Assembly: GCA_002441425.1 (NCBI GenBank) | Contig: DJWB01000001.1 | Coordinates: 224,602 to 288,601 of the forward strand | DNA length: 64,000 bases | Source: Patescibacteria group bacterium UBA6241 | Lineage (GTDB): Bacteria; Patescibacteriota; Minisyncoccia; Phycocordibacterales; Phycocordibacteraceae | Direction: 5' to 3' | Shown here: positions 16,936-51,885 of the stretch, in pieces | How positions within the stretch are numbered: position 1 is the first letter of the stretch | Layout of the letters: every line of letters begins with the position of its first letter | Position numbers and translations under genes: made by a program | The notes under the pieces: model-generated | The model's input: only the letters and a program-made list of their open reading frames with translations | Databases searched by the model: none | What the model was told of the DNA's origin: nothing

Positions 16936-16962
16936 GTTCTGCTATAATCCAGCTATTCTGGT

Positions 16963-18105
16963 ATGAAAATACTTTTTACTGCAGGAGGCACAGGGGGTCA
17001 CTTTTACCCACTTATTGCTATTGCTGAGGCAATACGTGATGTTGTGGCAGAACAGAAGATACTTCCTCCAACCCTGTACTACTTGGCAGACAAGCCGTAT
17101 GACGAAGAGGTTCTTTTCGCAAACGATATTATTTTCCTTAAGGCACCCGCAGGCAAGGTCCGCAGATACGCCTCGTTTGCGAATGTAACAGATATCTTTG
17201 TTACCTTTGCCGGTGTAGTTAAGGCATTCTTTATACTCCTTAGGATTTATCCTGACGTGATTATTTCTAAAGGTGGGTATGCAAGTGTCCCTACGGTTAT
17301 AGCAGCCTCTTTGTTGCGCATTCCACTCATTGCGCACGAGTCAGATGCAAAGCCAGGAAGAGCTAACTTGCTTGCCGCAAAATCTGCAGTGCGCATTGGT
17401 GTTGCCTTTGAAAGTGCGCGTGAAGCTTTCCCACAAAAGTATCAATACAAAGTTGCAAAGACCGGCATTCCCGTGCGCAAGCGGCTTATGCAGAAGATTC
17501 CTCGTACTGAAGCGGTACAGACACTAGGTCTTGATCCACTTGTACCAACAGTCTTTATTGTTGGAGGATCATCAGGATCTCAACGCATAAACGAGACTGT
17601 CCTTGATGCACTCCCTGATCTTGTTTCCTTTGCGAACGTGATTCACCAAACAGGAAAGACTCACTTTGAAAGTACTCGCCAGACAGCAAGTGTAATTCTA
17701 GGGAAGAGTGCACATAAGGAGCGCTACCATCCATACCCGTATCTAAACGCAGATACATTAGTCCAGGCGGCAGGCGCAGCTGATGTTGTTATCGCACGTG
17801 CTGGATCTACTTCTATTACGGAAATCTCCCTATGGGGCAAGCCATCAATACTCATCCCTATTCCAGAAAGTATCAGCCACGACCAGAGAACAAATGCATA
17901 CACATATGCGCACACAGGTGCTGCCGTTGTTTTAGAAGAAGCGAATCTTACACCCCATGTACTTGCGAGCGAGGCAAGGCGTATTAGTACAGACACTATT
18001 GTGGCTACTCGCATGAGTTCTTTAGCTCAAGGATTTGCAAATCCTGATGCAGCAAGCATTCTTGCAAAAGAGGCTATTCGCATAGCACTCTCTCACGAAA
18101 AATAG
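16963..18105 (+). CDS. murG: UDP-GlcNAc:lipid I GlcNAc transferase
   Basis: N-terminal ILFTAGGTGGHFYP and the C-terminal GT28 domain. Confidence 0.85.
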   Translation: MKILFTAGGTGGHFYPLIAIAEAIRDVVAEQKILPPTLYYLADKPYDEEVLFANDIIFLKAPAGKVRRYASFANVTDIFVTFAGVVKAFFILLRIYPDVIISKGGYASVPTVIAASLLRIPLIAHESDAKPGRANLLAAKSAVRIGVAFESAREAFPQKYQYKVAKTGIPVRKRLMQKIPRTEAVQTLGLDPLVPTVFIVGGSSGSQRINETVLDALPDLVSFANVIHQTGKTHFESTRQTASVILGKSAHKERYHPYPYLNADTLVQAAGAADVVIARAGSTSITEISLWGKPSILIPIPESISHDQRTNAYTYAHTGAAVVLEEANLTPHVLASEARRISTDTIVATRMSSLAQGFANPDAASILAKEAIRIALSHEK

Positions 18106-22326: not shown

Positions 22327-22364
22327 ACAAGGTCCTCCTGCAAATATTTGCAGGAGGACCTTGT
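22327..22364. terminator. Perfect 38-bp palindrome (acaaggtcctcctgcaaat|atttgcaggaggaccttgt), likely bidirectional terminator
   Basis: Read directly from the sequence. As RNA it forms a 17-bp stem. Confidence 0.5.
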
Positions 22365-22427: not shown

Positions 22428-23300
22428 TTGATAGACTACATGCATATGACTACGATCTTTTCGCGCGCACAAAGCGCCACACTTTTCCTTTTACTAATGT
22501 TAGGCTTCGGCTTCATACCAGCAGCAACTCATGCAGCTGAGGATGACTTAGGCTGTCTACTCATTACCAGCACTCCGAGAGGATACGAAGTATTTGAAGG
22601 AGAGAAGGACATTGAGATTCGTTCAGGAGAGCGAATTATCCTTGCATGGATTGGAATCAATGCTGAATCAGGTGAGGATCGTGACGGCACCTCAATTTCT
22701 ACTGTTGGACTACGTCTGTTTACCGCGCAAGGGAGCGGCTCTTACGATTTCACTTTTAAAGATGGGTCAGACGAAACAACCTGTACTGCTAATTTGCAGC
22801 TTGCAGGAGGGCAGCAAACAAACACCGTTGATACTTCAGACATAGATGAGGACGCGGGTGTTCTCTCTATTAGTTCCATTCCACTTCTCTCTGGAGGTGT
22901 AGCAGCGCGCGGTGCTTCTGTGCCAGTTGCATACATTAAGGTTGAGAACACAAGTACAGAGGCCGCAAAGATAGAAGGGTTTACTCTTGTACAAAATGGT
23001 TCTGCTGATACCGATGTAGTTATTGGATTTGCAACGAACGATGACAAAGGAGGATCTCGTTCTGTTATTGGAGGCAACGAAGACGACACTGTCTTTGACG
23101 GACGTGAGGCATACGTACCTTTGTCAGCAGTACTCAATCCAAAGTCATTCCGTATCTTTACACTGAAGAGTATTCTAAGTGCTGACGCGAGTGGGGAAGC
23201 AGGGAACACTCTTATGCTAGACGTTGATTCTGTTGATACTGGAGCCAAAGTATACGGGGCCTTCCCTATACGCGGCACAACTTGGAGACTCGGCTTCTAG
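22428..23300 (+). CDS. Secreted hypothetical protein (signal peptide, about 290 aa)
   Basis: Hydrophobic N-terminus ending AATHAAED. No recognisable domain. Confidence 0.45.
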   Translation: MIDYMHMTTIFSRAQSATLFLLLMLGFGFIPAATHAAEDDLGCLLITSTPRGYEVFEGEKDIEIRSGERIILAWIGINAESGEDRDGTSISTVGLRLFTAQGSGSYDFTFKDGSDETTCTANLQLAGGQQTNTVDTSDIDEDAGVLSISSIPLLSGGVAARGASVPVAYIKVENTSTEAAKIEGFTLVQNGSADTDVVIGFATNDDKGGSRSVIGGNEDDTVFDGREAYVPLSAVLNPKSFRIFTLKSILSADASGEAGNTLMLDVDSVDTGAKVYGAFPIRGTTWRLGF

Positions 23301-27962: not shown

Positions 27963-27982
27963 CAACCTCCCCTACCTAAAAC

Positions 27983-28014
27983 AAAAGACCCGCATAAAGC
28001 GGGTCTTTTGTTTT
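27983..28014. terminator. Bidirectional hairpin terminator between rpmA and rplI
   Basis: Sequence aaaagacccgc-ataa-agcgggtcttttgtttt. Confidence 0.6.
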
Positions 28015-28026
28015 ACTACGCGCTTC

Positions 28027-28452
28027 CTACTCAGCCTCAACAATAACTGAAATCTTTCCAAATACTTCTCCAACAGCAACAGGAACTTCAATTGTTCCGA
28101 GTTCTTTAACAGGCTTTTCAAGCTTGATTGCCTCAACGGGAAGGCTTGTAGCAGATGCAATCTCTGCAGCATCAACTGCGTCATACAGATGTCCCTTCTC
28201 GTTTGCCTTCTTGCGAATAACAATGCGCTCCTCAGCGAGTGCAGCAATGCGGTCCTGTACGAGCTTCACATCAAGCTCCTTACGATCCTTGTTCTGCTGT
28301 GCACGAAGCTCAGCCTGCTTTACGTTTGCTGGAGTTGCTGGCGCCGCCATGCCGCGAGGGATAAGGAAGTTAAGGGCGTGTCCGCTCGCACATTCAATAA
28401 TGGCTCCTGCACGCCCTGTGTTCTTCACGTCTTTGAGTAGTACGACTTTCAT
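28027..28452 (-). CDS. rplI: Ribosomal protein bL9
   Basis: N-terminal MKVVLLKDVKNTGRAG. Confidence 0.85.
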   Translation of the reverse strand: MKVVLLKDVKNTGRAGAIIECASGHALNFLIPRGMAAPATPANVKQAELRAQQNKDRKELDVKLVQDRIAALAEERIVIRKKANEKGHLYDAVDAAEIASATSLPVEAIKLEKPVKELGTIEVPVAVGEVFGKISVIVEAE

Positions 28453-28545
28453 ATAGGACTATCCTACAGAGAAAGGTCTCTGGGTGCAAATAAAAGCACC
28501 CTCCTTCCGAAGAAGTGAGGGCGCTAAAGTATTCCGTCGTTCTGA

Positions 28546-29145
28546 TTACGGGAGACGGCCGCCGGTGATGGTGACGACACGCGCACCAGCCCAGCGGCTG
28601 CCACGACCGTCCACCTTGACCAGGTCCACGTCCCAGAAGGGCGTGACATGGAGACAGTGGCCGATGAAGACCAGGCTGATGGCCCGGGCCCCGTTTTCAA
28701 TCAGCAGAAGGTTCGGCTGGCCGTTGTCGCGCAGGATGACGTCTGGCTGTTCAGCGTCGTGCAGCAGCAGACGCGCGAACAGATCGGGCATCTTGTCGGT
28801 GAGATGGGTCTCGCCGGCTTTCGTGCACGCGTGCTCCGCCTTGACGCACAGCTCCGGTCCTTGAAGCGGACCGTCGTCGCAGAGCGGCAGGGCTTTCACG
28901 TTCACCGGCATGGCCAGGAACGGCGAGCAGTTGTCCTCCTGGCTGTACCAGTGCAGAAGAGCCGGCGACAGACGCACTTGCGTCTGCAGGCTCCTCAAGG
29001 CCATGACCCCGTCACCTTCCTTGAAGGTCGGCGACGGCAGATGGGCCCGGTTGATCAGACGCTTTTCGGGCGCGTCAGCCACCAGAGCAAGAGCATTCAT
29101 TAGATTTTCCTCCAGGAATACACTGCGTACGATTAAGTTCGTCAC
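28546..29145 (-). CDS. Hypothetical protein (199 aa) on GC-rich cassette
   Basis: GC3-rich codons. SD GGAGGAAAATCTA precedes the ATG. The antisense ORFs are Arg/Gln-rich and were judged non-coding. No family recognised. Confidence 0.45.
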   Translation of the reverse strand: MTNLIVRSVFLEENLMNALALVADAPEKRLINRAHLPSPTFKEGDGVMALRSLQTQVRLSPALLHWYSQEDNCSPFLAMPVNVKALPLCDDGPLQGPELCVKAEHACTKAGETHLTDKMPDLFARLLLHDAEQPDVILRDNGQPNLLLIENGARAISLVFIGHCLHVTPFWDVDLVKVDGRGSRWAGARVVTITGGRLP

Positions 29146-29239
29146 AGCAGAAAAAAGCCAGAAGCTGCTTTCTGCTGTGACGAACTGAGGATATTTACGA
29201 AGAACAGCTCATAGCATTATACCATGCTATGAGCTGTTC
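29137..29239. promoter_or_regulatory. Two tandem perfect hairpins (17-bp and 16-bp stems); a near-consensus promoter for the minus-strand cassette gene is embedded in hairpin 1
   Basis: Hairpin 2 is 29137-29185; hairpin 1 is 29202-29239. On the minus strand, TTGGAC (29240-29245) + 18 nt + TATAAT (29216-29221) spans the loop and arm of hairpin 1. Confidence 0.5.
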
Positions 29240-29255
29240 GTCCAAACGTTGTGTA

Positions 29256-30521
29256 TTACTTCCCTGTCCTTAAGAATTCAACTGCACGAGCCTTCTGGGG
29301 ATCTTTTCCTGCAACGATGTCTTCCTTGGTTACCTCTATCTTAATGTCTGGAGTGAGTCCTCCTTCTGAAATAGATCGGCCTGAAGGGGTAAGCCAGCGA
29401 GCAACAGTCACCTTGAGCGCTCCTCCATTGATATCAACCAGTTCCTGCACTGATCCCTTTCCAAAGGATCGAGTTCCGATAAGTGTGGCAACACCAGCGT
29501 CTTGCAATGCTCCTGCAAGAATCTCGGAAGCAGAGGCTGATCCCTGATCCATGAGAATAACTACTTTTGTTCCCTCAGGTATTCCTCCCTTTCCACTGCT
29601 GCGGTGCACAATATTCTCTTGCTTTCCCTTGTAGTCTTCTGTTACCACAACTGAGCCGCGAGGAAGGAAGTGGCTTGCGATAGAGACCGCTGCTTCAAGA
29701 TAGCCTCCTGGGTCTCCGCGAAGATCAATAATGAGGTTCTTTGAACCAGACGCTTTGAATTCTGTAAGTGCCTTTGCAAATAGTTGTCCTGAGTTTGCAG
29801 TAAAGCTGTACAACGCAATGCTATAGACTCCCGTCTCACGATCATACGTGTTCTCAATGGTTGGAACTGCAATGGTGTCGCGTACTACACTAATCTCCAT
29901 AGTTTCTCCATCTCTGAGTACCGTAAAGATAACGGTAGTCCCCTTTTCTCCACGAATCTTCTTAACTGCTTCGTCAGTAGAAAGTCCTTCGGTTGAAGCC
30001 CCATCAATTGCAAGGATCCCGTCACCAGAGCGGATACCTGCACGCTCTGCTGGAGTTCCCTTAAGGGGCGCTATAACCGTGAGGAGTCCTTCTTTTACTC
30101 CAATCTCCATTCCTACTCCTTCAAAGTTTCCCTTTATGTCGTCTTGGAAAACCTTAGCCTCAGCCGGAGGAAGAAACACGGTATAGGGGTCCCCATAAGA
30201 CGCAGTAAGTCCCTGAATTGCGCCCCAAAGTTTTTCCTTTGCCGTTGGGTTACTTGAAGAAGCGTGTGTCTCAACGAATCTAGTATTAAGTGCATTCCAT
30301 GCCTTCCAGAAAGCACCGAGATCTACAGATTCATCTGGTGTTGCATCAAGACCATCTCCTAGCAATGGAACGTTTGAGAAAAAGCTATTCCCTCCTGCAG
30401 CACCCACAGAAACTCCTCCCGCAAAACCAATAGCGAGAACGAGTGCGAATGCAATTCCCATCTTTGCAAACTTTCCAAGTGGTCGTGCTTGGGATTCTTT
30501 TTCTTCAAGTTCCGGTGTCAT
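29256..30521 (-). CDS. ctpA: Carboxy-terminal processing peptidase (S41A, PDZ)
   Basis: PDZ block followed by LIIDLRGDPGGYLEAAVSIASHFL. Confidence 0.85.
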   Translation of the reverse strand: MTPELEEKESQARPLGKFAKMGIAFALVLAIGFAGGVSVGAAGGNSFFSNVPLLGDGLDATPDESVDLGAFWKAWNALNTRFVETHASSSNPTAKEKLWGAIQGLTASYGDPYTVFLPPAEAKVFQDDIKGNFEGVGMEIGVKEGLLTVIAPLKGTPAERAGIRSGDGILAIDGASTEGLSTDEAVKKIRGEKGTTVIFTVLRDGETMEISVVRDTIAVPTIENTYDRETGVYSIALYSFTANSGQLFAKALTEFKASGSKNLIIDLRGDPGGYLEAAVSIASHFLPRGSVVVTEDYKGKQENIVHRSSGKGGIPEGTKVVILMDQGSASASEILAGALQDAGVATLIGTRSFGKGSVQELVDINGGALKVTVARWLTPSGRSISEGGLTPDIKIEVTKEDIVAGKDPQKARAVEFLRTGK

Positions 30522-34378: not shown

Positions 34379-34984
34379 ATGAGAGATCGTATTGAAGACC
34401 TCGCTCATGCCTTTACGAGATTCCCTGGAATAGGACCTCGCCAGGCGAAGCGTTTTGTATACCATCTGCTTTCAGCCCCTCCCCAGGAGCGCGCACGTCT
34501 TGCAGACCTTGTCCTTAATCTTTCTAACGACATTCGCCAGTGCGGACTCTGCATGCGCTTTGCGCAGACTAATAGCGAGAACCTCTGTATGTATTGTGCG
34601 GACACACACAGAGATGATTCAGTCCTCATGATTGTAGAGAAGGACCAGGATGTTGCTGCAGTTGAAAGAGCAAACACCTATAAAGGCAGATACTTTGTGT
34701 TGGGCGGCGTACTCACCCTCTCAGGCAAAGGAACTATTCGCGAACGAGAGCTTGTACGCATTGTTGAGTTGCGTGCTGCCTCTGGACTCTCTGAAATTGT
34801 ACTTGCCCTCTCAGCAACGTCTGAGGGAGAGCATACTGCAGACCGTGTTCGCCAGATCCTGACACCGTTGCGTGGTCCTATGACTCTTACAGAGCTTGGA
34901 AGAGGCCTCTCAACAGGTGCTGAGCTTGAATACGCTGATTCCACTACCCTTTCCGAAGCGCTTCGCAATCGCAAGGAGACCTAA
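34379..34984 (+). CDS. recR: Recombination protein RecR
   Basis: HhH motif FPGIGPRQAKRF, zinc finger CGLC...CMYC, Toprim domain. Confidence 0.9.
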   Translation: MRDRIEDLAHAFTRFPGIGPRQAKRFVYHLLSAPPQERARLADLVLNLSNDIRQCGLCMRFAQTNSENLCMYCADTHRDDSVLMIVEKDQDVAAVERANTYKGRYFVLGGVLTLSGKGTIRERELVRIVELRAASGLSEIVLALSATSEGEHTADRVRQILTPLRGPMTLTELGRGLSTGAELEYADSTTLSEALRNRKET

Positions 34985-35016
34985 TCAAAAAAGACTCCCT
35001 CGGGAGTCTTTTTTGA

Positions 35017-35346
35017 TTACTTGATTGCGTCAATCTTTACTTTGACGTATGGCTGGCGGTGTCCGCGGCGCTTCAAGTAGTTGCTCTTTGCTTTGTACTT
35101 AACAACCTCTACTTTCTTTGCGCGTCCTACAGACTGAACAGTTCCAGTAACTGTCTTTCCTGAGACTGTTGGAGTTCCGAGAGTAAGTGTACCGTTGTCG
35201 GTCATAAGCACCTGATCAAAAGTAACCGTATCTCCCTTCTTCAGGTCCTGAGTAGCAGCACCCCGACCGAGTTTCTCAATCGTAACGGTTGCGCCGGGAG
35301 CAACCACATACTGCTTTCCACCGGTCTTTATAACTGCGAGTTCCAT
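35017..35346 (-). CDS. rplU: Ribosomal protein bL21
   Basis: N-terminal MELAVIKTGGKQYVV. Confidence 0.9.
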   Translation of the reverse strand: MELAVIKTGGKQYVVAPGATVTIEKLGRGAATQDLKKGDTVTFDQVLMTDNGTLTLGTPTVSGKTVTGTVQSVGRAKKVEVVKYKAKSNYLKRRGHRQPYVKVKIDAIK

Positions 35347-42981: not shown

Positions 42982-43158
42982 TCCACAAAGCAGCCCGAGA
43001 CATTGTCTCGGGCTGCTTTGTTCCCGAATGCATTTTTTCATACCCCCCTCCTAAATTCAGAAATCAGATATGCATTCAACCCCGAGCGCGAGTCCGCGAG
43101 GCGCGAGAGGGCTAAGTATTCTCGAAATGGGTTCGCGCGAGGGTTAGGAGTTCCTCAC
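42982..43158. repeat. IR1 right copy (inverted), includes an extra 12-bp-stem palindrome
   Basis: Hand alignment to 40952-41111 in reverse complement. Confidence 0.85.
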
Positions 43159-43283
43159 AAAAAGATACTTCCTCGGAAGATAGTTCGGAATACAATCCCG
43201 CCCATGGCGGGATTGTATTCATTTTCGCGCGCAGACGCGCGGCATTCTCAGACGGCGGGGATACTCTGAAATGCATGGATTTG
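43155..43283. repeat. IR2 left copy (129 bp) containing a 33-bp perfect palindrome (43188-43220) and a GC palindrome (43226-43241)
   Basis: Identical to the reverse complement of 44719-44847. Confidence 0.9.
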
Positions 43284-43330
43284 CACTTCTCTTTCGAGCC
43301 ATACCGTCGCAAGTGATACCATGCAAAGAT

Positions 43331-44875
43331 ATGGCACCGAGATATTTTCTCTACGCGCGCAAAAGTACCGAGCCGGACGACAAGCAAGCGATGAGTATTC
43401 CGGCGCAGCTCGTTGAGTTGCGAGAGTTCGCGCGGAGAGAAAACCTGAATATTGTCAGTGAGTACACTGAATCAAAAAGCGCAAAGACACCGGGACGCGA
43501 TGTGTTTGGCGATATGATGATGCGTCTTGAGCGCGACGAAGCCAACGGAATAATCGCGTGGCATCCCGATAGGTTGGCGAGAAACAGCATTGACGGTGGG
43601 CGCATCATATACGCCGTAGACACGGGCAAGATCGTGTCGTTGCGCTTTCCGACATTCTGGTTTGAACCCACGCCACAGGGTCTATTTATGCTTCAGGTGG
43701 CGTTCGGGCAGTCCAAGTACTATTCAGATAACCTCGGCGAGAACACGAGGCGTGGGATGCGGCAGAAACTGCGTAGAGGCGAGTGGCTCACAAAAGCGCC
43801 GTTCGGGTATACCAACAACCCTAAAACCCGCAATATCGAGCCGGACGCGGTAAAAGCAAAAATCATCGTTCGCGCTTTTGACGAGTACGCAACCGGAAAA
43901 TATACGCTCGTTTCCATGGCGCAGTTTCTCCAAGACCTCGGCATCACGACCAAAGCCGGAACACAGCTCGGCAAAGCGTCCATAAAGCGCATTTTGACGA
44001 ATCGTGCATACCTCGGCTTTACGAAACACCTCGGCGAATTCTTTCCCGGCTCGTTCGCTTCGATTATCACTTCAACGCAGTTTGAAGCGGTGCAAAATAT
44101 CCTCGCAAAACGCGAGCATCGCTACAAACGCCGTCAAAGGAACGATTTCCCGTTTACCAATCTTTTTCGCTGCACTGAGTGTACGTCTATGTACACGGCG
44201 CAATGGACAACTGGAAAATCTGGCGGACGCTATCGCTACTACCGTTGCACGAAAAAGAAAGGAAACTGCACATCAGGCTATGTGCGCGAGGATATATTGC
44301 TCGCGCAAATTCAAGAGCGGATCGAAAGCATCTCGCTTCGCGATAGGCATACGGGCTGGATGTTGAACAAGGTGGACGAGTGGGAGCGCAAAGAAAATAG
44401 TTCCAACGGGAGCGAGATACAAAATCTTTCTTCCAAGATATCAGCGAGCGAAGAGCGCATGGACAAACTGGTTTCCGCATACCTGGACGGCGATATCCCC
44501 AAGCCAATCTATTTGAAGCGGAAAGACGAAATTATGCGCGCTCTCGCCTCGCTGAACGAAGAAAAGAAAGATTTCGAGAACGGAAAGAAAAAGTGGGTCG
44601 AACCCTTGCGTGCGTGGGTTCTAGACACCAAACAAGCCATGGAATTGAGTTCGTCCGACAACTTGCACGAAATCTCCGCTTTCGTCAGGAAGGTCGGAAC
44701 GAACCCCCGTATTGAATACAAATCCATGCATTTCAGAGTATCCCCGCCGTCTGAGAATGCCGCGCGTCTGCGCGCGAAAATGAATACAATCCCGCCATGG
44801 GCGGGATTGTATTCCGAACTATCTTCCGAGGAAGTATCTTTTTGTGACCTCACGGGGAATCGAACCCCGATTTGA
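43331..44875 (+). CDS. Large serine recombinase (resolvase catalytic domain + recombinase domain + zinc ribbon + coiled coil)
   Basis: N-terminal YFLYARKSTEPDD...SIPAQ catalytic Ser region, Cys cluster CTECT...YRCTKKKGNC, and a coiled-coil tail. The ATG at 43331 is internal to the tool ORF. The ORF reads through IR2 and 30 nt into tRNA-Glu before its first stop, so the true C-terminus is uncertain. Confidence 0.8.
   Translation: MAPRYFLYARKSTEPDDKQAMSIPAQLVELREFARRENLNIVSEYTESKSAKTPGRDVFGDMMMRLERDEANGIIAWHPDRLARNSIDGGRIIYAVDTGKIVSLRFPTFWFEPTPQGLFMLQVAFGQSKYYSDNLGENTRRGMRQKLRRGEWLTKAPFGYTNNPKTRNIEPDAVKAKIIVRAFDEYATGKYTLVSMAQFLQDLGITTKAGTQLGKASIKRILTNRAYLGFTKHLGEFFPGSFASIITSTQFEAVQNILAKREHRYKRRQRNDFPFTNLFRCTECTSMYTAQWTTGKSGGRYRYYRCTKKKGNCTSGYVREDILLAQIQERIESISLRDRHTGWMLNKVDEWERKENSSNGSEIQNLSSKISASEERMDKLVSAYLDGDIPKPIYLKRKDEIMRALASLNEEKKDFENGKKKWVEPLRAWVLDTKQAMELSSSDNLHEISAFVRKVGTNPRIEYKSMHFRVSPPSENAARLRAKMNTIPPWAGLYSELSSEEVSFCDLTGNRTPI
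44719..44847. repeat. IR2 right copy (inverted); its last 3 nt overlap the tRNA-Glu 3' end
   Basis: 129/129 identity to 43155-43283 in reverse complement. The palindrome sits at 44782-44814. Confidence 0.9.
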
Positions 44876-44916
44876 TCCGTGAGAGGGATCTGTCCTAACC
44901 GTTAGACGATGAGGCC
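44845..44916 (-). tRNA. tRNA-Glu (anticodon CTC), no encoded CCA
   Basis: Hand-built cloverleaf: acceptor ggcctca/tgaggtc, D-arm identical in layout to E. coli tRNA-Glu, anticodon loop ctCTCac, T-loop ttcgatt. Confidence 0.85.
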
Positions 44917-51609: not shown

Positions 51610-51687
51610 TGAATACTTCCTTCCATAATTGAACGCGTTGCTGAGTATGTGAGAAGCTTCTGCTTCTGATAGAAAGAACTTCCTACC

Positions 51688-51733
51688 CTAGAAAAAGCGC
51701 GAGACCCATTGCTGGGTCTCGCGCTTTTTCTAG
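51688..51733. terminator. Perfect 20-bp-arm palindrome (ctagaaaaagcgcgagaccc-attgct-gggtctcgcgctttttctag), bidirectional terminator
   Basis: Read from the sequence. Sits between greA and the GC-rich cassette. Confidence 0.6.
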
Positions 51734-51885
51734 GAGTTTCTCTATCCAGAAATTTTACGCAGTGACCCAGGCCCTCTTCATAAAGAGAGTCCATAGGACA
51801 ACCACGTAAATCTGCTGGAAATAAGTCACCTAGTAACCTTATACCCAAAAAGAACCCTGTCAATAAGGGTTCTTGGGATAAATTC

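Follow-up and report, generated by a model that had tools for sequence, protein, structure and literature searches.

Two compensatorily conserved RNA hairpins between ctpA and an orphan gene of Patescibacteria, one of them overlapping a candidate promoter

The spacer between ctpA and an orphan gene in Patescibacteria group bacterium UBA6241 contains two long inverted repeats, one of which overlaps a promoter-like sequence. Are these repeats RNA structures or DNA sites, and could the same few nucleotides both close the ctpA transcript and open that of the orphan gene? The locus was pointed out in a first-pass annotation, made by a model from the letters of the DNA, and this report is a computational follow-up of that 64-kb stretch of Patescibacteria DNA, hereafter designated as the window. 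The hairpins formed by the two repeats (A and B) are real sense-strand RNA structures that have been kept by compensatory mutations. As to their function, we favor with moderate confidence an arrangement in which hairpin A is a terminator or insulator overlapped by the promoter of a gene cassette, followed by hairpin B as a leader hairpin with a post-transcriptional role.

All genes of the locus are on the minus strand, in the order ctpA, 155-nt spacer, orphan gene, terminator, rplI promoter and rplI. The ctpA-like gene, which encodes a carboxy-terminal processing protease (Peptidase_S41 and PDZ), occupies 29256–30521 with the stop codon TAA at 29258–29256. The first-pass annotation had described ctpA and the cassette gene as convergent, but ctpA (30521 to 29256) and the orphan gene (29100 to 28546) are in tandem and rplI is co-directional too. 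It had also placed two perfect inverted repeats in the spacer, and both are present. Hairpin A (29202–29239) is formed by arms at 29202–29217 and 29224–29239, giving a perfect stem of 16 bp with a 6-nt loop (GGTATA on the minus strand, GGUAUA in the RNA) and a folding energy of −26.9 kcal/mol; allowing 95% complementarity lengthens the stem to 19 nt, and UUCGUAAA follows as the tail. Hairpin B follows after a linker of 15 nt in the window. It has a perfect core of 17 bp (arms 29137–29153 and 29169–29185), and its extended form (29136–29186, −34.8 kcal/mol) comprises 19 bp, a conserved 1×1 mismatch (C·U), 4 bp and a variable loop, here of 3 nt, with 23 bp in total.

These structures stand out from the background of the window. 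Folded over 164 nt, the spacer reached −74.9 kcal/mol, compared with −34.9 ± 4.0 kcal/mol in shuffled sequences (z = −10). The window has ten perfect inverted repeats whose arms measure 14 nt or more, and five mononucleotide shuffles had none; the remaining long hairpins are mostly classical bidirectional terminators. The arm sequences of A and B were not found elsewhere in the 64-kb window, each arm being present only in its own hairpin. Searches of metagenome and viral collections with the 17-mer of hairpin B returned 63 + 4 matches, all of them chance matches to a single arm, and no true copy. A covariance model of the element, searched against the window and 85 loci, matched only the orthologous site in carriers of the orphan gene. 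Because they are single-copy and the matches of the covariance model are confined to the orthologous site, the hairpins are not dispersed repeats such as repetitive extragenic palindromic (REP) sequences or miniature inverted-repeat transposable elements (MITEs). No Rfam family scored above noise, and the only matches were sub-threshold and microRNA-like, which is usual for long hairpins. Two further pairings were considered and rejected. An outer inverted repeat (29114–29128 and 29246–29260, 80%) is not kept in the related loci L003 or L007 and is probably due to chance, and a pairing of GACGAAC, located 5′ of A, with GUUCGUC in the 5′ arm of B shows sister-group changes without co-variation.

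Evidence on the nature of the repeats comes from six distinct spacers, which were aligned in two groups: group 1 (the window, L003 and L007) and its sister, group 2 (L153, L158 and L159). These spacers represent six lineages that diverged within one small Patescibacteria clade, and both hairpins are kept in all of them, with folding energies ranging from −22 to −27 kcal/mol for A and from −31 to −36 kcal/mol for B. Standard pairs fill 97.4% of the 228 cells of the two-helix structure, compared with 43–56% when the partners are slid by 1–3 columns. Ten of the 39 pairs have changed on both sides (seven in A and three in B); this count was matched by 1 of 500 shuffles, and the covariation score was matched by none. 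RNAalifold, run without guidance, returned the same two helices. All 22 non-Watson–Crick standard pairs are G·U on the sense strand, including those of hairpin B found in L159, and A·C cells are absent (0); the pairing of 97.4% on the sense strand compares with 87.7% on the antisense strand. The presence of 22 G·U and no A·C cells therefore identifies the hairpins as RNA structures of the ctpA/orphan-gene direction. The stem columns of the window and L007 are 91% identical, although the synonymous sites of ctpA differ at 67%. Conservation is not uniform within the element. The stems of B are nearly invariant in sequence while its loop is free to vary, and the loop of A is constant (GGUAUA or AGUAUA). 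The 1×1 mismatch of B is C·U, U·U or A·C and forms a pair in none of the six lineages.

The position of hairpin A relates it to the upstream gene. It starts 17 nt past the ctpA stop codon, and relatives with other inserts at this junction carry a canonical terminator (GC-rich stem with flanking A- and T-runs) 6–18 nt past the ctpA stop. A stable stem-loop on the coding strand after the stop codon, as in an intrinsic terminator, was found in all six lineages. The covariation of A, including G·U pairs on the sense strand, implies an RNA that starts upstream of A, and only the ctpA transcript fits. From these sequence comparisons, a role of A at the 3′ end of ctpA (termination, insulation or 3′ protection) is the simplest reading and the most likely one. 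The earlier suggestion that a hairpin of this spacer doubles as the ctpA terminator is thus plausible for A, in view of its post-stop position, as in relatives, and its covariation. Long, perfect hairpins at gene ends are also found in the same genome as bidirectional terminators (27977–28015, 34982–35019 and 51687–51734), which A resembles in its post-stop position. These have GC-rich stems with A- and T-tracts, whereas A and B are AU-rich and without tracts.

Hairpin A also overlaps a promoter match on the same strand. The hexamer TTGGAC (29245–29240), located directly 5′ of the stem, is separated by an 18-nt spacer from TATAAT (29221–29216), which has TG ahead of it (29224–29223). TATAAT takes up the last four bases of the loop and runs two bases into the 3′ arm; the whole extended −10 element, TGGTATAAT (29216–29224), covers the loop and the same 2 nt of that arm. 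The overlap of a TTGGAC-18 nt-TATAAT promoter with a hairpin, as proposed in the first-pass annotation, therefore holds for hairpin A, with the −10 element in the loop and the 5′ arm as the promoter spacer. A promoter scan scored the site as TGGACG-17-TATAAT, 10/12 with TG. TTGGAC agrees with TTGACA at no more than 3 of 6 positions, and it is the perfect extended −10 that makes the match strong. Taken by itself, the motif TGNTATAAT has two occurrences in the window where 1.5 would be expected by chance; this count is not significant, and the weight of the motif comes from its position, orientation and conservation. The window, L003, L006 and L007 all have TTGGAC-18-TGGTATAAT; in the three group-1 lineages both elements are invariant and the intervening spacer changes with compensation. 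The predicted transcription start is at about 29208–29210, within the 3′ arm of A. The only other TGnTATAAT of the window (TGCTATAAT, 16940–16948) lies in a 27-nt gap between two plus-strand open reading frames (ORFs), in the correct orientation. It ends 14 nt before the ATG of the ORF at 16963–18105, which implies a very short leader.

The promoters of this lineage can be gauged from rplI, the gene downstream of the cassette. Retrieval with ctpA yielded 80 genomes, 75 of which have a measurable ctpA–rplI gap. In 73 of these 75 relatives rplI is preceded by TAnnnT, ending 6–11 nt before the ATG (at 8 nt in 48 of them), and 71 TTGnnn matches were found in the upstream regions at a spacer of 16–18 nt, the ten commonest combinations all having 17 nt. 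On this pattern, the lineage clearly uses promoters of the sigma-70 type, TTGnnn-17-TAnnnT. The rplI gene of the relatives has no Shine–Dalgarno (SD) sequence, and its conserved promoter is of the kind that gives leaderless or near-leaderless mRNAs. Where the ctpA–rplI gap is 19 nt, the −35 element of rplI is inside ctpA and the −10 element overlaps the ctpA stop codon. A remnant of this ancestral rplI promoter at the ctpA stop (TTGAAT-17-TAATAC) was considered as another start site in the carriers, but its last base is never T there and it was judged inactive.

Hairpin B is located between the promoter match and the SD sequence of the orphan gene (29136–29186 compared with 29113–29109), which agrees with the position given to the second hairpin in the first-pass annotation. 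The same annotation had suggested attenuation or occlusion as the mode of control. Attenuation is not supported: a U-tract after B is absent, the tail being UAAUCGUA or UCAAUCGU; the minimum-free-energy folds of the six lineages all contain the same hairpin B and no competing fold; and Rfam gave no match to a leader or riboswitch family. Occlusion of the SD fares no better, as 22 nt separate the SD from the 3′ end of hairpin B and the SD takes part in no pairing conserved across the six lineages. An anti-SD stretch, CCUC, in the A–B linker of the window could pair with GGAGG, but this part of the linker is deleted in L003 and L007. We also discarded an N-terminal extension or upstream ORF that would begin at a GTG within the 3′ arm of B: its frame is that of the gene in the window and L007 but not in L153. 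In its geometry B resembles a substrate for ribonuclease III (RNase III): its 19 + 4 bp make about two turns of double-stranded helix, and the mismatch is never paired. RNase III and stabilizer hairpins include the R1.1-type sites of phage T7, the rpsO–pnp leader and 5′ stem-loops such as those of ompA and aprE; they are helices of ~20 bp or more with a small internal loop, located between cistrons or at the 5′ end of the mRNA. Hairpin B is similar to them in geometry only, with 19 + 4 bp and the mismatch in all six lineages, and its place would be close to the 5′ end of the putative mRNA, or between the cistrons if the RNA is a read-through product. We infer that B is a leader hairpin for mRNA stability or processing (a 5′ stabilizer or an RNase III-type substrate) or for protein binding.

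Immediately 3′ of hairpin B is a conserved motif, UYAAYCGU (29129–29136). RNAalifold used it for a 4-bp closing helix, P1, in which GGAC/UGAC located 5′ of A pairs with GUNN (CGU(N) of the motif). One pair of P1 shifts between the groups, from U–A to G–C or G·U. The helix is weak: it has 4 bp, it contains a G·A mismatch in the window itself, and UUG/CAA is a competing alternative.

Taken together, the arrangement that we favor would work as follows. The spacer would be the regulatory head of a self-contained cassette consisting of A, B, the SD, the orphan gene and its own terminator. This small cassette would have entered the gap between ctpA and the rplI promoter a single time, in the ancestor of the clade, and would have been inherited vertically since. 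Hairpin A would form at the 3′ end of the ctpA transcript, where it may terminate or insulate and stabilize the 3′ end. The same DNA would serve as the cassette promoter, with the −35 element 5′ of the stem, the 5′ arm as spacer and the extended −10 as loop; as the promoter spacer, the 5′ arm would be free to co-vary. Transcription would start within the 3′ arm of A, near 29209, giving an mRNA leader of ~109 nt. Hairpin B, a long and near-perfect helix with a conserved single mismatch, would be the main feature of this leader and could set stability or processing or bind a protein. The hairpins and the downstream terminator would together shield the orphan gene's expression from the housekeeping genes on either side.

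Several observations weigh against this arrangement. Hairpin A does not have the form of a canonical terminator: its stem is AU-rich, it was not called by the terminator scan, and only 3–5 U are present in the first 8 nt after it (UUCGUAAA, UUCAUAUA, UUCUUAAU, UUAUUUCC and UUCGUUCC). Its covariation lends no support to the promoter, because a transcript begun within A cannot form A. In the sister group (L153, L158 and L159) the corresponding sequence is TTGACG-17-TATACC, in which the −35 element and the spacer length are better but the −10 hexamer lacks the T at −7; the final T of the −10 element is present in all 73 rplI boxes of the lineage and absent from TATACC. No alternative promoter is visible in the sister-group spacers, yet the gene is under purifying selection there, and it may depend on read-through of hairpin A. 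The role of B, finally, was assigned by exclusion and geometry. The sister-group difference could also reflect turnover, in which a weak −35 with a perfect extended −10 was traded for a good −35 with a poor −10.

The points just listed bear on the possibility that the orphan gene has no working internal promoter and is expressed from ctpA transcripts that read through. In that case A and B, perhaps with P1 as a three-way junction, would be an intercistronic structured RNA controlling processing, differential stability or protein binding, and the promoter match of the window group would be secondary or incidental. A transcript begun upstream, which the covariation of A needs, is inherent to such a scheme; TATACC without a substitute promoter ahead of a constrained gene, the poor U-tract after A, the closing helix with its switching pair and the conservation of UYAAYCGU also agree with it. 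On the other hand, three lineages share without change the perfect extended −10 and its TTG at −35, correctly placed and correctly oriented, and we estimated the chance of such a promoter at ~0.004 (1.5 sites per window multiplied by the intergenic fraction, orientation and −35). In addition, the loop of A is conserved in sequence and that of B varies freely, P1 has no more than 4 bp and contains a G·A mismatch in the window, and a trade in strength between −35 and −10 is how real promoters evolve. We regard read-through without a promoter as the main alternative, a serious one but less probable than the terminator–promoter arrangement. A further scheme, which we consider unlikely, joins A, B, the closing helix and UYAAYCGU into a previously undescribed three-way-junction cis-regulatory RNA, perhaps bound by the orphan protein or a cellular factor, with the same DNA serving as terminator and promoter.

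Other explanations assign the repeats to DNA, to conditional control of the leader or to mobility. Palindromes that overlap promoters are typical operators. Terminator palindromes can double as factor sites, as for LexA at the yobI terminator (bioRxiv 10.64898/2026.08.19.745784); the almost invariant stems of B would also suit dimeric transcription factors that bind over the promoter and act as a downstream roadblock, or cruciforms that occlude the promoter. However, the 22 G·U pairs on the sense strand and none on the other break DNA symmetry and keep RNA pairing, arms of 16–19 bp far exceed operator half-sites, and the arm sequence of A has been replaced at seven pairs with pairing kept, which makes a function as DNA quite improbable. 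We assign a still smaller likelihood to classical attenuation or a riboswitch, in which B would be a signal-responsive conditional terminator or a mask of the SD. A long, structured and conserved leader ahead of a gene with an SD invites this idea, but it is contradicted by the missing U-tract, the single fold in six lineages, the SD 22 nt away, the absence of Rfam matches above noise and the deletion of the CCUC anti-SD-like stretch in L003 and L007; apart from the one 1×1 mismatch, the helix is near-perfect and without conserved internal loops resembling a ligand pocket. Equally remote is an origin of the hairpins as recombination or mobile-element sites left by insertion of the cassette, whether attC-like, an IS200/IS605-type end, REP or MITE. 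The ctpA/rplI junction is an insertion hot spot with lineage-specific genes, the composition of the cassette is unlike its flanks, and the left end of the insertion sequence IS200 is very similar, with a terminator hairpin, a start just after it and a long leader stem-loop (PMC4513863). Yet the element is single-copy in the window and has no true copy in the metagenome and viral collections or in relatives without the gene; it has been maintained by compensatory changes long after a single ancient insertion; the cassette contains no transposase or integrase; its 3′ end has an ordinary terminator in place of a matching hairpin; and no phage or plasmid match was found.

Two described systems help to place the arrangement of a terminator or insulator with an overlapping promoter. 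Promoter-coupled terminators have been reported from tandem transcription units, in which terminators and promoters often overlap and coupling to a promoter makes termination more efficient (Fletcher et al., bioRxiv 10.64898/2026.08.19.745784). In that class the termination site is ≤35 bp (mode ~10 bp) upstream of the start on the same strand; the −35 element overlaps the stem, the spacer includes the T-tract, and the −10 element comes after the hairpin (bioRxiv 10.64898/2026.08.19.745784). Hairpin A is likewise located between tandem genes, its palindrome overlaps the promoter match, and one stretch of DNA would serve both termination and initiation; a coupling effect on termination could offset its weak U-tract. 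The geometry is different in that the entire core promoter is contained in hairpin A or adjoins it: the loop of A holds the −10 element, and transcription is predicted to start in the 3′ arm, ahead of any termination point. At the IS200 left end, a terminator hairpin occupies nt 12–34, transcription starts at ~nt 40 and a leader stem-loop follows at nt 69–138 (PMC4513863). The order of a shielding hairpin, a start at the hairpin, a long stable leader stem-loop, an SD and a gene is shared with the cassette, and both suggest tight, insulated and low expression. Unlike the IS200 leader stem, which sequesters the SD, hairpin B does not, and the multi-copy Y1 transposase element contrasts with an orphan protein, a single copy and vertical inheritance here. 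The hairpins also differ from integron attC sites: they are 5′ of the gene and nearly perfect, the cassette stands singly among housekeeping genes, and its 3′ end has an ordinary terminator. No integrase was found next to the cassette, in a search limited to the neighboring genes.

The gene behind this spacer encodes a protein of 184 amino acids (aa) at 28546–29100 on the minus strand, with 64% GC and a GC content at third codon positions (GC3) of 0.79. Its SD sequence, GGAGG (29113–29109), is followed by an 8-nt gap and the ATG at 29100–29098. A canonical intrinsic terminator, with a GC-rich stem and then UUUUAUUU, is located at 28488–28525, and a terminator at this position is present in all lineages. 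Next to it are the rplI promoter TTGCAC-17-TAGGAT (28461–28489), whose end is 8 nt ahead of the rplI ATG (28452), and rplI itself (28027–28452), encoding ribosomal protein L9. A handful of homologues of the orphan protein were found among ~15 billion proteins, with identities of 93%, 89%, 47%, 35%, 32% and 31%, and every one of them is in the same slot between ctpA and rplI in one small Patescibacteria clade. Near-identical or identical DNA was found in a Joint Genome Institute (JGI) metagenome contig and in NCBI genomes labeled ‘Patescibacteria group bacterium’; the genome of the window is Paceibacteria/Parcubacteria-like. The protein had no match in Pfam, NCBIfam, PHROGs, PADLOC or a PDB profile search, and BLAST searches of phages and plasmids with the gene gave none either. 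Its predicted structure had a mean predicted local distance difference test (pLDDT) score of 36, and the model was unusable.

Most of the 75 relatives have rplI only ~19 nt after ctpA, and the others carry unrelated inserts at the junction. Among loci L008–L085, such inserts include a 187-aa multi-pass membrane protein, sometimes with a gene of ~880 aa, and a 192-aa family; further inserts are minus-strand ORFs of ~110 aa and a 145-aa protein in L077. Because unrelated inserts occupy the junction in different lineages, it is an insertion hot spot. In a tree of ctpA and L9, the carriers of the orphan gene are monophyletic. The synonymous divergence (dS) of the orphan gene is 0.37–1.2, no greater than that of its flanks, and its nonsynonymous divergence (dN) is 5–10 times higher, with dN/dS of 0.18–0.68 compared with 0.04–0.11 for ctpA and rplI. 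The monophyly of the carriers and a dS no greater than that of the flanks indicate a single entry followed by co-divergence of the cassette with its neighbors. The first-pass annotation had called the gene foreign; as a recent transfer this does not stand, since the gene and its hairpins are monophyletic and have diverged together with ctpA and rplI. In the window and in its orthologues of L007, L153 and L159, the orphan gene has a GC3 of 0.74–0.83 even where that of ctpA and rplI is 0.36–0.43. Long plus-strand ORFs antisense to the orphan gene are expected with a GC3 of 0.8.

Some other features were noticed in the course of the analysis. Two independent short metagenome contigs, L004 and L005, start at the loop end of the upper stem of B (CGGCTTTTTTCTGCTG...), probably because the assembly broke off at the inverted repeat and not because a transcript ends there. 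Inside ctpA, on the antisense strand (29444–29561, plus), is a sub-threshold match to the Rfam family Rickettsia sRNA47 (33 bits compared with a gathering score of 60, E = 3.9e-6), which is probably spurious. A perfect loopless palindrome of 19 + 19 nt at 22327–22364 (ACAAGGTCCTCCTGCAAAT and ATTTGCAGGAGGACCTTGT) contains AGGAGG/CCTCCT and is 64 nt upstream of the ORF at 22428–23300, itself without a Pfam match. A perfect inverted repeat of 129 nt (43155–43283 and 44719–44847) brackets most of a large serine recombinase gene at 43271–44875 on the plus strand (Resolvase, Recombinase and Zn_ribbon_recom). Its left arm holds the start codon of the recombinase, and its right arm shares 4 nt with the 3′ end of tRNA-Glu(ctc) (44844–44916, minus). 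This repeat could be an invertible segment, the boundary of an integrated element or an assembly artefact.

To our knowledge, experiments have revealed almost nothing about the transcription signals of Patescibacteria, also referred to as the candidate phyla radiation (CPR). The element described here occurs in no more than a handful of metagenome-assembled genomes, and what it does is derived by inference, which limits its reach. Within these genomes, one stretch of 45 bp appears to hold two layers, an RNA hairpin kept by compensation and a promoter in which the arm is the spacer and the loop is the −10 element. If confirmed, this would extend terminator–promoter coupling to a fully overlapping geometry; the three-way junction, if true, would take dual coding to an extreme in a reduced CPR genome. 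On that reading, the rapid evolution of the protein (5–10 times that of its neighbors), together with the resistance of the gene to low-GC drift, hints at an unusual selective regime such as conflict, defence or addiction. The locus also provides a leader RNA that is lineage-specific and absent from Rfam, and the orphan gene behind it evolves fast. Insulated expression suggests that the product of the orphan gene must stay at a controlled level.

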